A stretch of DNA of 64,000 nt, from contig NW_027139215.1 in the NCBI RefSeq assembly GCF_035084215.1, forward strand, positions 62,001 through 126,000, given 5' to 3'. The position numbers and the translations under genes were made by a program. The DNA comes from Heptranchias perlo. Taxonomy: Eukaryota. Below the pieces are notes generated by a model. That model made no database searches and was not told where the DNA came from. It saw nothing but the letters and a program-made list of their open reading frames with translations. Shown here piece after piece: positions 21,705-39,874 of this stretch (the stretch's first letter is position 1; each line of letters opens with the position of its first letter).

Positions 21705-21765
21705 TCTAACTGTCTAAGAAGGTATTTTAACTAGCTGAACCAGGCTAACGTCTTCCCAAACTCTT

Positions 21766-22002
21766 TTTTTTTTCTTTTTTTTCTTTTTCCTATTAGGCCC
21801 CCCTTTTATAAGAAGGGGGGGTGTGGGGTGTGCTTAAATACTAAAAACCCAAACAAACCAAAACCAAGTGTTCAAATTAAAACTTTATTATCCTCGTCCA
21901 GGATGCACTCCAGCCCCTGCGGTGCCCACCGGCCGCGGAAAGCCTCGAGCGTACCGGCAGACACCGCGTGCTCCATCTCCAGGGCCACCCGGGCGCAGAG
22001 CA
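21766..22002 (-). mobile_element. 5'-truncated Tx1 insertion with 13-bp TSD TTCCCAAACTCTT (21753-21765 / 22003-22015)
   Basis: ORF2 end, 3' UTR, hairpin and poly(A) on the minus strand; exact direct repeat on both sides. Confidence 0.92.
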
Positions 22003-22180
22003 TTCCCAAACTCTTCTATTTATATGTCTGGGGACAGCCTGCCTGTAATACAAGGCGTGGCATTCCCGATGATGAGTAAAAACTCACACTAGCCATTCAG
22101 AGCTCGACGCCCACTGAGGACACCAATCAAGAAAGAGGCGTAGTCGAGATTGTATTTAAGGCCAATCAGAACATTTTTTT
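22003..22180 (-). promoter_or_regulatory. Promoter of the ferritin pseudogene (TATAAATA 22024-22017, CCAAT boxes)
   Basis: TATA box at the expected distance once the Tx1 insert is removed; CCAATCA at ~22123 and ~22162. Confidence 0.7.
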
Positions 22181-22214
22181 TTCAATTAAGTAGATTTGTT
22201 TTGAATCAGGTTGA

Positions 22215-22335
22215 CTTTTTTTGTATGTTTCGATCCCCTTTTATGAGATTGAGGGAGGGAGGTTCAGGATGTAACTTTATTTTTTTTTTTAAATCCAAAA
22301 ACTAAATGATAACAGAGTCAAATAATAATTATAAT
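22215..22335 (-). mobile_element. Old degenerate Tx1 3' terminus
   Basis: Minus strand reads ...ATTATTTGACTCTG...CATAAAAGGGG...A-rich, similar to 18960-19112. Confidence 0.55.
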
Positions 22336-36640: not shown

Positions 36641-36654
36641 AAAACTAGACGAAA

Positions 36655-36977
36655 CTGGAGTGCATCCTGGATATCCACAGGTCCAGGATGCTCGCGGTCC
36701 GTGGGGGCGGGCGCTCGGCCTGTCTGCCTCTCTTCCGCGGAATGCTCCGCGCCCGGGTGGCCCTGGAGATGGAGCACGCGGTGTCTGCCGGTACGCTTGA
36801 GGCTTTCCGCGACCGGTGGGCACCGCAGGTGCTGGAGTGCATCCTGGACGAGGAAAATAAAATTTTAATTTGATGCCTGGTTTCGTTTTATTTGGTTTTT
36901 AGTACTTAAGCACACCCTACACCCCCCCCCCCTTCTTATAAAAGGGGGGCCAGAAAAAAAAAAAAGACAAAAAAAAA
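36655..36977 (+). mobile_element. 5'-truncated Tx1 whose poly(A) abuts the zp3 5' region
   Basis: ORF2 end at 36873, hairpin with TATAAAAG 36937-36944, poly(A) to 36977. Confidence 0.93.
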
Positions 36978-37021
36978 GGTGCTGGTTGGTGGGTAAAGTG
37001 ATAGTTGAGTTGTTTGGTATC

Positions 37022-39874
37022 ATGGGGGATTTTGTAGTGAGAGGTTTGTTCCCGGTGCTGGTGTTAGTTGGAGCGGTTTGTTGCTCTGATATTTGGCAAC
37101 AGTTTAGAGGCCAGAGATTTCCATGGAGAAGAGTAAAACCCACCCCTGTGCCCCAGAGAGTCCCTCTCCCTGTCCCTCCCTTTGGTTCCCATTTCAGTGT
37201 GTCTGAGGGGAGAAGTCTGTCTCCACTGCAGACTGTGATGGTGCAGTGTGGAGAGCAGAACCTGCTGGTGAGGGTAGACATGGATTTATTTAGAACCAGG
37301 CACCTGATTAAAGCTGCTGACCTGACCCTGGGGACAGCAGGTTGTCGGCCAACTGGGATCTACTCTCAGAACCACACTGTCCTCTTTGACTATGGGCTCC
37401 ATGAATGTGGCAGCAGATTGCAGGTAATGTGATTCCTCAACTCTTGTTCCAATTTCACTGTGTAGATTACTGCCCACTCTGAACTCATTAACATCGGGGG
37501 AAACTCCAGCCACTGAGGAGATCCCTGAATGAAATCTGTGTATAAATTTTTGCCCACTGTGAAGTATCACCCTGTGTGAAACTACTTCTTTGTGTTGACA
37601 TGTCAATCTTCGCTTTATATTTAAAAAGAACTTCGACTTGTCACTGAGGGACTGCATCTTTCTTAAATGGGTCATTGCTGCTCTCTAACTCTGAGATTCA
37701 ATTCTATTGACCTTGAACCTTCACCTGCATTTCTCCAAACCACTCTGTTCTTTTGTGCCTCAATTGATTTATCTTTTCCGTTCCTTCCTGTGGATATTCA
37801 GGCCTGTTGCCTCAACTTGTGGTCAATGAATGTTCAGTGTGGAAGTTCCTGTTGAGACTTCCCTTGAAAGATGAAACAAGTGGAATAATAATTGGGATAC
37901 AATGAATTAAAGGGGAACTCCACTTTTGGTTGTTACACCTGCCAATACCATTGATTCCACGGACACAGATGAGATTTAAAAGTGATGTTGTGTTTTGTGC
38001 TCCATATCAGGGGTAACTTGAGCCCCTTAAGGTGAAAGCTCTAATCTATATGGGAAAGAATGCTCATCAAATCTGGCAGTGCCAATCATTTCAGGGGTTT
38101 CTGACTGCAGGCCTGAAGTCCCCTGTAATAGAAGGTGGACTGAGCAGAGTAACAGAGGCTGCTCCAGGCAACTTCTCCCAATGGTGGAGCGACTTCAATC
38201 ATGTGTCATTGAGGAGCAGCTGAAACCCCTTAAACTGCTGCTTAACAGGGTAGGAAAATGACCAGAAATAGCTTTTGTTCAATGAGACCAGCTCTTCATT
38301 TCTTAACCTGATGTCTTTCAGATGGCTGGCGATTTCCTGGTCGACACCACCCACCTGAACCACACCCCAAATGCTCGTGGATCTGTCATTGTGAGAACTA
38401 ATGGAGCAGTCATTCCCATTGAGTGCCACTATTTTAGGTAAGAATCTTTACTCTATTGCAAATAAGGTCTACAGCAGGTGCAGTTCTCTGAAGTTGTCCT
38501 GAAATTACTGTAGTGTCCTTTCAGGAAGGGCAATGTGAGCAGTGACCCTATCAAGCCCACCTGGATCCCATTCCGCTCTACCAAGTCTGGAGAAGGGCTT
38601 CTGTCATTCTCACTGCGTCTTATGAACGGTATGTGATGGGTGGATGGGGAGTGCTTTTCTGTCGTCTCCCACTGGGAGTTACACCCACTGTCTCCAACCC
38701 TTGTCCTCTTGTACTTCAGATGACTGGCTGACAGAGCGCACCTCGACTGTCTACTACCTGGGTGACCTCATTCACATTGAGGCCTCTGTTTCAATGACCA
38801 ACCACATGCCCTTGAATCTCTACATTAACAGCTGTGCAGCGACATTGAGCCCAGACAAGGATTCCACCCCAAGATACAACATCATTGACTCCCATGGGTA
38901 AGGAGCTCTCTGCTTTCTCCAGCTGGTTCTGTCTCAATCGGTTCACTTAATTCACTTTGTCCCTTTTTAAATCTTTCTTCAGTTGCCTCCTGGACAGCAA
39001 AGCTGAGGACTCCTTTTCAACCTTTGTGTTGCCAAGAGGTGAACGTGAGCTGGACGAACTCCAGTTTGATCTGGATGCGTTCCGCTTCTTTGGAGATGAC
39101 CGTTCCTTGGTAAGAGGAAGCCAAACATTGGGTTCCCCATGTTGGGAGGAGGTCACTAAATAACAACTTGTATTGAATGTGTCCCTCAGATTTTCATCAC
39201 CTGTCACCTGAAAGTTGCTGCAGTGGATCGGAGAGATTCCATGAACAAGGCTTGTACTTTCCAGAATATGTAAGTTCCCTCTCTCGTTCAGGGATGTGTT
39301 GATTGAAGGGTGATGGACAACCTGGTTGATAAACTGATTCTCTGGTTGAGCTGGACCCCATTGGAAGAATCGACCAATGACGTGTGTGCCTCTTGTCATC
39401 TGGGCAACTGCAGTGCCACAAGGGATTTCCTCGTTGATTCCAGAGGAAGGAGGGATCTTGTATCTGGACCTGGTAGGACATTGATCCTCTTGATTGTTGG
39501 AGGTCACCCTTTACCCTCTAACTGGAATGTTTGATATTGCAGAGAGTGATGCTGAGTTGAAGTGGGAGGGTGAGGCCTCACTTGGACCCTTGGTCATTCT
39601 GGATCCTCATGTGACAGACCTGGCAACTGAGCCCCTTAATGATGTTGAGCAAAGGATGCAGGAGAGGTCTCCAGGTGGTGAGTTGGCAGACTGCTAGTTT
39701 CCATTTTCCCCTCAGTATTTCCTTCACTAACCATTGGTTTCTTGTTGCTTTATAGGTGTGGCGTCTGAGGTGGTCCTGATCTTGGCCCTGACTGTGAGCG
39801 CTGTCTCTCTGATCTCTGCTTCTTGGATTGCCTTGTTCCTGAACAGGAAACACAAGCAAACCCAGTTTAACTAG
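37022..39874 (+). CDS. zp3: Zona pellucida sperm-binding protein 3-like, ~460 aa (exons 37022-37423, 38322-38437, 38525-38628, 38720-38897, 38983-39109, 39190-39269, 39351-39472, 39543-39677, 39756-39874)
   Basis: Signal peptide; ZP motifs VQCGE, LHECGS, IPIECHY, KPTWIPF, IHIEASV, FITCHLK, NKACTF; furin site RGRR; EHP-like [10 protein letters not shown] helix; AATAAA 39888; GT-AG junctions keep frame (exon 7 acceptor least certain). Confidence 0.92.

Follow-up and report, generated by a model that had tools for sequence, protein, structure and literature searches.

Organization of the locus and identity of the element

The window described here is a stretch of 64,000 nucleotides from Heptranchias perlo (contig NW_027139215.1; C1048:62001-126000 in the 3.25-Gb genome assembly, where C numbers denote assembly sequences and L numbers individual loci). 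It contains two intact ferritin genes, a ferritin pseudogene and a zp3 gene, together with copies of a Tx1 retrotransposon, a long interspersed nuclear element (LINE), some of which are located at the promoters of these genes (Table 1). Three of the Tx1 copies are arranged head to tail in 1-18.9 kb with a period of 7.0 kb. Open reading frame 2 (ORF2) of copy 1 matched PF03372 (APE) and PF00078 (reverse transcriptase, RT) above the cut-off, and zf-RVT weakly, below the cut-off. Its top match was YTX2_XENLA, the ORF2 of Xenopus Tx1 (50% identity over 1297 aa). Partial protein matches to entries from rays and a horn shark, like the ferritin array, are in line with a cartilaginous fish. An APE/RT ORF2 with YTX2_XENLA rather than L1 as the nearest relative is characteristic of the Tx1 clade. 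Poly(A) tails, 5' truncation and target-site duplications (TSDs) of 9-19 bp were observed at the 45 dispersed sites described below.

The window is part of a mixed ferritin/zp3 array of ~9 Mb (C38 ~9.1-17.8 Mb, C43 4.2-4.7 Mb, C725 and C1048). Searches with zp3 exon 1 and ferritin exon 1 gave 202 and 201 candidates, respectively, and the best 40 of each were all on C38 (9-18 Mb), C43, C725 or C1048. Array units are 98-100% alike among the top matches, and ~90 zp3 promoters are on C38. No report of ferritin-zp3 interleaving was found in the literature searched, where ferritin clusters are reported in other sharks.

Table 1. Features of the window (window coordinates unless C1048 is given)
Feature	Position	Strand	Remarks
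5' head of Tx1 copy 1	C1048:60014-60104, just left of the window		zp3 promoter/exon-1 fusion
Tandem Tx1 copy 1	1..4855	+	ORF2 intact, 845-4747, 1300 aa (APE, RT, zinc finger)
5' head of Tx1 copy 2	4897..5109	-	Antisense ferritin promoter, ~+45 to -167 from TATA; TATA decayed near 4935; CCAAT boxes present
Tx1 copy 2 body	5110..11885	+	ORF1 5802-7844 with CCHC knuckle; ORF2 frameshift near 9.29 kb; hairpin and poly(A) at end
Tx1 copy 3	11886..18945	+	Head also antisense ferritin promoter; tail with zp3 5' untranslated region (5'UTR) tag at 18911-18934, then ferritin-upstream DNA
Old Tx1 3' remnant, 80%	19264..19540	-	Upstream of ferritin promoter in empty alleles L288, L290
Ferritin pseudogene, 5' part	20686..22024	-	ATG 21704; in-frame stop at codon 7; TATA 22024-22017
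5'-truncated Tx1 with 13-bp TSD	21753..22015	-	Element 21766-22002
Two older Tx1 3' remnants	22373-22770, 22766-22939	-, +	Between two ferritin promoters; BLAST
Hairpin and poly(A) remnant	23492..23550	-	~110 bp upstream of ferritin-2 TATA-like box; by eye
Ferritin gene 2	23655..26803	+	Four exons, ORF intact
Two older Tx1 remnants	28803-28882, 29199-29351	+, -	Upstream of ferritin 3; BLAST; common to array copies; the minus-strand remnant at -212 from ferritin-3 TATA
Ferritin gene 3	29565..32197	+	Four exons, ORF intact; TATA 29565
5'-truncated Tx1	34790..36640	-	Head-to-head fusion with the zp3-TATA element; 3' flank (TCTGAAAG...) a frequent tag on dispersed copies
Short Tx1	36641..36977	+	Poly(A) joins zp3 TATA box end; promoter upstream of it lost
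zp3 gene	37022..39880	+	ZP-N domain; first six exons in frame

Insertions in the array promoters and at dispersed sites

In the original prediction, made from the window alone, a Tx1 family was proposed to target the TATA boxes of ferritin and zp3 genes, and the two insertions on which this was based were confirmed. The exact 13-bp TSD of the truncated copy, TTCCCAAACTCTT, is at 21753-21765 and 22003-22015, and begins 2 bp downstream of the TATA box of the ferritin pseudogene, TATAAATA, on the minus strand at 22024-22017. The genome has a single empty allele of this site (C43:4355358), whereas 17 copies are filled and have an identical 5' junction; the presence of the empty allele proves the TSD. 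On the zp3 side, the poly(A) of the Tx1 at 36668-36977 ends 44 bp before the ATG (37022), at the zp3 TATA box. Empty zp3 alleles read ...CAGGTGACTGCAGGTTTTGTATAAAA|GGTGCTGG, which places the poly(A) junction where the TATA box ends. A CAGGTG E-box, which we take to be a ZP-type box, is ~20 bp upstream of this TATAAAA|GG junction. The further Tx1 3' ends noticed near the ferritin loci correspond to four BLAST remnants and one remnant found by eye only (Table 1). As had been stated, the distal part of the window is devoid of this family, BLAST giving no match at 37.0-64 kb. The absence of insertions from introns is true inside the window and fails elsewhere, since L025 and 3' tags show hits in zp3 intron 1. 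Co-orientation with the gene is not a rule: both strands are used.

All window insertions tested are also present in other array copies. One TATA insertion is common to 22 of the 30 best zp3 loci, and the 29.3-kb remnant occurs 32 times with a single junction. The zp3 TATA-end pattern had 125 matches, of which 100 were listed; among the 93 listed on C38, the TATA box is intact in 70 and poly(A) precedes the match in 23, from 20 loci (both hand counts). Each insertion in the window is therefore one event that has been amplified. Segmental duplication, to which the clustering could have collapsed, accounts for the copy numbers of these insertions and not for the number of distinct sites.

The claim of repeated, independent insertion near the promoters of the multicopy ferritin and zp3 genes was borne out. 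Within the arrays were 23 of the 44 youngest copies, duplicates included. When poly(A) junctions were mapped, 50 sites remained after merging; 37 of these are on host references and some are inside the element body. Of the 37, ~8 were dropped by eye as natural A-runs or false junctions, leaving ~30 distinct junctions. These are distributed, on both strands, over -250 to +45 of ferritin, -76 to +1265 of zp3, including exon 1 and intron 1, and ~800 bp of a multi-chromosome locus with a zp3 intron-1/exon-2 fragment. The random expectation for array hits is 0.05-0.28, with the target taken as ~0.42 Mb on our own estimate. In 480 kb of C38 (three blocks picked by round coordinates), 13 of 14 distinct events by hand count are ≤1 kb from a present or former zp3 or ferritin TATA box; such windows make up 4.6% of the 480 kb (P ~5e-17, the events being not fully independent). 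At least two independent insertions have occurred at the zp3 TATA site. As a control, one non-Tx1 insertion was found in 60 array loci. Truncated copies with TSDs or collinear flanks are located at +9 of the ferritin pseudogene, -117 and -54 of ferritin, -212 of ferritin 3, -92 and -76 of zp3, and, three times, in the zp3-fragment locus. Because they are short and truncated, these promoter copies cannot have been selected as sources.

The multi-chromosome locus is a strong Tx1 hot spot (L309, L310, L316 and L297-L311, on C13, C16, C32, C37, C49 and scaffolds). It contains E-boxes, the zp3 intron-1/exon-2 fragment and a 24-bp satellite, and several of its copies are near contig ends. The "Bup" locus was considered as an intact zp3 paralog and rejected, because it holds only the intron-1/exon-2 fragment, followed by satellite. 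Positions 23428-23499 of the window, upstream of ferritin 2, are homologous to the zp3 upstream region; pieces of the ferritin and zp3 promoters appear to be shuffled between both genes, with Tx1 remnants at the seams.

The 3' hairpin of the element has 427 exact matches genome-wide, and ~2200 candidates. The dispersed sample consisted of 71 of the 427 matches, those first listed on C1-C7 (70 loci, 68 distinct). TSDs were recognized in 48 loci; three of these were removed (a duplicate, a simple repeat and a false call), which left 45. The base before the junction is A in 41 of these 45 sites and the base after it is G in 26. No TATA box occurs at -20 to +3 of the junction in any of the 45. In comparisons of 47 sites, which retain two doubtful sites absent from the set of 45, a TATA box within 100 bp was observed at 7 sites (37 of 256 control windows), and a CpG-island-like context at 4 (8 of 137 controls); the GC-box rate was also like that of controls. 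Enrichment of TATA boxes, GC boxes or CpG islands at dispersed sites was therefore rejected. CAGSTG E-boxes are in excess at one window size (20/47 against 50/256, p=0.001, 1 of 18 tests). Without a TATA excess at the dispersed sites, the TATA box is not supported as the recognized target; the weak A|G motif accommodates the two hits at TATA boxes as well. In addition, the lack of a promoter signal at dispersed copies means that the insertion preference is partial.

A fixed target sequence of the Keno/Tx1L type was not observed: the ~30 sites are different and share only the A|G preference. Target preference has been defined as one flank type in >20% of copies (PMC4494074; here and below, cited statements refer to the accessible parts of the sources). 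The youngest copies exceed this value for one class, and the older dispersed sample does not. Three young copies (L005, L043 and L202, on C22, C1 and C17) are in one AT-rich satellite.

Host sequences at the 5' and 3' ends of the element

Full-length copies are headed by host promoters, a larger point that the original prediction missed. At the start of each tandem unit of the window, 230 nt resemble a CCAAT-rich 5'UTR but are the antisense ferritin promoter. Ferritin exon 1 adjoins these 230 nt in L268, L269, L274, L279, L284-286 and L289, and empty promoter alleles on C43 run on without the element body. A search with the ORF1 start gave 210 candidates, the best 40 all in arrays. Ferritin promoter DNA is directly upstream of the body in 28 of the 30 loci fetched, the query having come from a ferritin-headed copy, which favours this type. 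In the second type of head, the element is fused in sense to zp3 DNA that comprises the promoter, the 5'UTR and the initial 25 bases of coding sequence. This type has 17 exact zp3-exon-1/Tx1 junctions and includes the unit heading the window's tandem array. Like R2, the element has full-length copies that start with host target sequence. The third type, B5, is mostly in the zp3-fragment locus. The C23 flank of L218 was rejected as the source of B5, being alike over ~60 nt only and having no TSD. A very large dispersed repeat unit (L328; C23 1.6-30.8 Mb; 1542 candidates) has CCAAT/TATA-like motifs with a tandem repeat of 31 bp behind them, and one young Tx1 5' end is ~90 bp upstream of a TATA-like box in this C23 unit.

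Several copies bear on how the heads may have arisen. The transcription start site (TSS) is expected at about +30 from a TATA box. In L392, a full-length Tx1 starts at +32 from the zp3 TATA box, without the zp3 promoter, and is located 83 bp past a tRNA-Tyr gene; a TSD was looked for and none was found. A copy of this kind would be expected from RNA that started at the zp3 promoter, and gives indirect support to initiation at the host promoter. In L390 and L391, the order is promoter, head, element, poly(A) and then zp3 again from +3. They are in an 88%-identical zp3 paralog, whose private variants are present in both copies of +7 to +30. Because paralog-specific variants are on both sides, the promoter has been regenerated, and the arrangement represents an independent hit at the TATA end that left the element behind an intact promoter. 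The serial repeats of L157 and L212 have one 5' truncation point and differing tails; they also fit homology-assisted 5' joining, with recombination as an alternative. A poly(A)-like tract at -170 had suggested antisense transduction of the whole zp3 gene; this was rejected in favour of recombination, because the homologous stretch extends downstream by >3 kb and a TSD was not observed. Four runs were guessed to be RNA: X1 contigs cover 28 of 30 bins of the element at L347, and at the zp3/Tx1 junction one X1 contig extends 30 nt to the other side, a single nucleotide less than the bridging rule requires. Neither was used as support.

The 3' tails are often ordered poly(A)-tag-poly(A)-TSD. In 26 of the 68 dispersed loci, automatic mapping assigned the tags to zp3, DNA upstream of ferritin, the zp3-fragment locus or head B5 (3 loci); ~8 more loci have such tags by eye, and few tags map elsewhere. 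This mapping places the traceable sources at the ferritin and zp3 genes and the zp3-fragment locus. At L180 (C7:21.94 Mb), a Tx1 3' end is accompanied by a transduced fragment of the zp3 gene, 331 nt long and made up of 5'UTR and exon 1. Tag stacks at L155, L210 and L050 show successive sources shifting between non-homologous loci. The new terminal poly(A) of L032, L042, L055, L157, L163, L175 and L180 often contains single Gs at intervals of ~8-11 nt, which could reflect mixed tailing, a TENT4 activity, or later mutation.

The remaining features of the window lie apart from these insertions. A CpG-rich promoter-like segment (42700-43150), ~3 kb past zp3, is well conserved among array units and has no Tx1. 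A 968-aa open frame of another LINE (46650-49556; endonuclease and RT by eye) is distant from promoters. A 54-bp tandem repeat is at 55537-56350, and the same satellite abuts the zp3 promoter at ~-200 in many array units. An Rfam scan of the window gave tRNA matches alone (six tRNA-like, at 49.6-63.9 kb).

Possible mechanism and comparison with known systems

The insertion pattern is real and richer than first proposed, yet it is not TATA targeting. We consider it likely that this lineage lives as a promoter parasite: host promoters would drive it in oocytes, and it would re-insert into the same promoter regions far above chance, probably through open chromatin. The DNA itself contains the host-promoter heads, the ~30 junctions in both orientations, the 3' tags, the TSDs and one copy at the predicted zp3 TSS. 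Transcription in oocytes from host promoters, insertion driven by access, homology-assisted 5' joining and survival by redundancy are inferred. zp3 is an oocyte gene. The ferritin cluster of the Greenland shark is reported to be ovary-specific (bioRxiv 2024.09.09.611499, section 6).

The following mechanism may be proposed. Target-primed reverse transcription (TPRT) would nick at A|G in accessible DNA, and the sequences TATAAAA|GG and TATAAATAGAA|GAG would merely fit this motif. Where the host-derived head of the RNA matches the DNA past the nick, the cDNA would be joined by homology, so that the promoter is duplicated and a new active source or tandem unit is formed. Read-through would place short flank tags between poly(A) tracts. 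Redundancy of the genes would let promoter insertions persist, and segmental duplication would multiply them. Most progeny would land elsewhere, truncated and silent.

Several points weigh against this model. The events are not fully independent, with same-site serial repeats at L157, L170 and L212, and a TSD is missing from L205, L207 and L392. Recombination in the array is free, and between copies it can exchange heads as well as flanks. Dispersed copies have no promoter signal, so the preference is partial. Head B5 was not traced to host DNA and may be the element's own internal promoter. The tag evidence is biased towards expressed sources. It should also be mentioned that the TSS at +30 and activity in oocytes are presumed from general knowledge and from another species.

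In place of open chromatin, ORF1p or ORF2p might bind the pre-initiation machinery or an oocyte transcription factor, with TBP-family proteins, NF-Y or a Figla-type E-box factor as possible partners, in the manner of Tf1 and Ty3, and hits in single-copy promoters would be purged. Promoter insertions are indeed purged in the Drosophila germline (PMC10018349). The very large and narrow enrichment, the lack of a pile-up of other LINEs in the array promoters and the weak E-box excess at dispersed sites are in line with such tethering. We regard it as unlikely, because the sites are scattered across 1.5 kb, zp3 intron 1 included, without keeping a constant distance to the TSS, and most older copies are dispersed at non-promoter sites. 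Near-random insertion, in which only copies near oocyte promoters are expressed and are then multiplied and reshuffled by segmental duplication and recombination, would account for the window insertions shared by 17-32 copies, the single TATA insertion in most of the best zp3 loci, the random appearance of the dispersed sites and the junctions without TSD. It seems quite unlikely in view of ~30 distinct sites against at most 0.28 expected, of truncated, TSD-bearing promoter copies unable to be sources, and of tag stacks whose generations move between non-homologous loci. The tags and tandem junctions could also be ascribed to template jumps of the RT among abundant short oocyte RNAs, as many tags are stacked and only 8-30 nt long and some junctions are inside the element body. 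This is highly improbable: resident insertions are present at the main tag start sites (the zp3 TATA end, TCTGAAAG, CCTTTTG and GTTCTGG), the zp3 tag begins upstream of the predicted TSS, and the 331 nt at L180 start from the same junction. Recognition of core-promoter TATA boxes by the endonuclease, suggested by two window insertions at TATA ends and the second zp3 hit, is already largely refuted by the absence of TATA boxes from the 45 dispersed sites, by array junctions that are mostly 30-300 bp off or in introns, and by the 70 intact TATA boxes among the 93 listed C38 matches. The excess in promoters would probably come from open chromatin, combined with a weak preference of the nick for A|G.

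In the literature searched, which did not extend to most subscription papers and Repbase Reports, no Tx1 family was found to be described at promoters of protein-coding genes or in arrays of ferritin and zp3. The Tx1 targets named in PMC4494074 are snRNA genes, microsatellites and transposons, and its supplements may bear on novelty. If the promoter-parasite model is correct, sources in amplified, oocyte-expressed protein-coding genes constitute a new niche that combines a safe harbour with germline expression, and the element offers a concrete route for replacement of 5'UTR and promoter in LINE evolution. Its tag stacks allow source lineages to be traced without experiments, and it may have a part in shaping the ferritin clusters described from other sharks. 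As an APE-type element with strong regional and weak sequence preference, it is a test case for chromatin directing TPRT.

The best named relatives are Xenopus Tx1L and Tx2L, which are alike in the APE-RT ORF2 and the TSDs. Tx1L targets the Tx1D DNA transposon (PMC4494074), whereas the shark family has no fixed target sequence and a β-hairpin loop shorter by three residues. Keno, Kibi, Koshi and Tx1-Mar share the preference for multicopy targets; theirs are U2 genes, microsatellites or transposons, whereas the shark family uses promoter-proximal DNA of protein genes, at many positions and on both strands. Tf1, the P element and the I element keep their own promoters. Tf1 and the P element, moreover, are LTR (long terminal repeat) or DNA elements, unlike the Tx1 LINE. 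Tf1 of fission yeast, the P element and the I element prefer Pol II promoters (PMC6719617, PMC10018349), the I element only 1.74-fold (PMC10018349). Tandem insertions sandwiching a TSD, resembling the arrangement here, are described for SINEU-3 (PMC4494074).

In the full-length shark copies examined, host heads are the rule and seem to be renewed by re-insertion at donor promoters, in contrast to SVA, L1 and HeT-A. SVA 5' transductions, L1 3' transductions and HeT-A tags provide examples of captured 5' host sequence, source-tracing flank tags and head-to-tail arrays. R2 depends on Pol I and has a restriction-like endonuclease and one fixed site; the shark Tx1, in contrast, is at Pol II promoters, has an APE and uses many sites in either orientation. 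Transcription of R2 depends on its host target, the 28S rDNA, and co-transcribed target sequence strengthens its integration (PMC4494074). Tentatively, the shark element might be a counterpart of R2 for Pol II protein genes: a LINE without its own promoter, directed to oocyte-specific Pol II promoters of amplified genes, that regenerates its promoter at every re-insertion by homology-assisted 5' joining, keeps its pedigree in stacked 3' tags and has reshuffled the ferritin and zp3 promoters.

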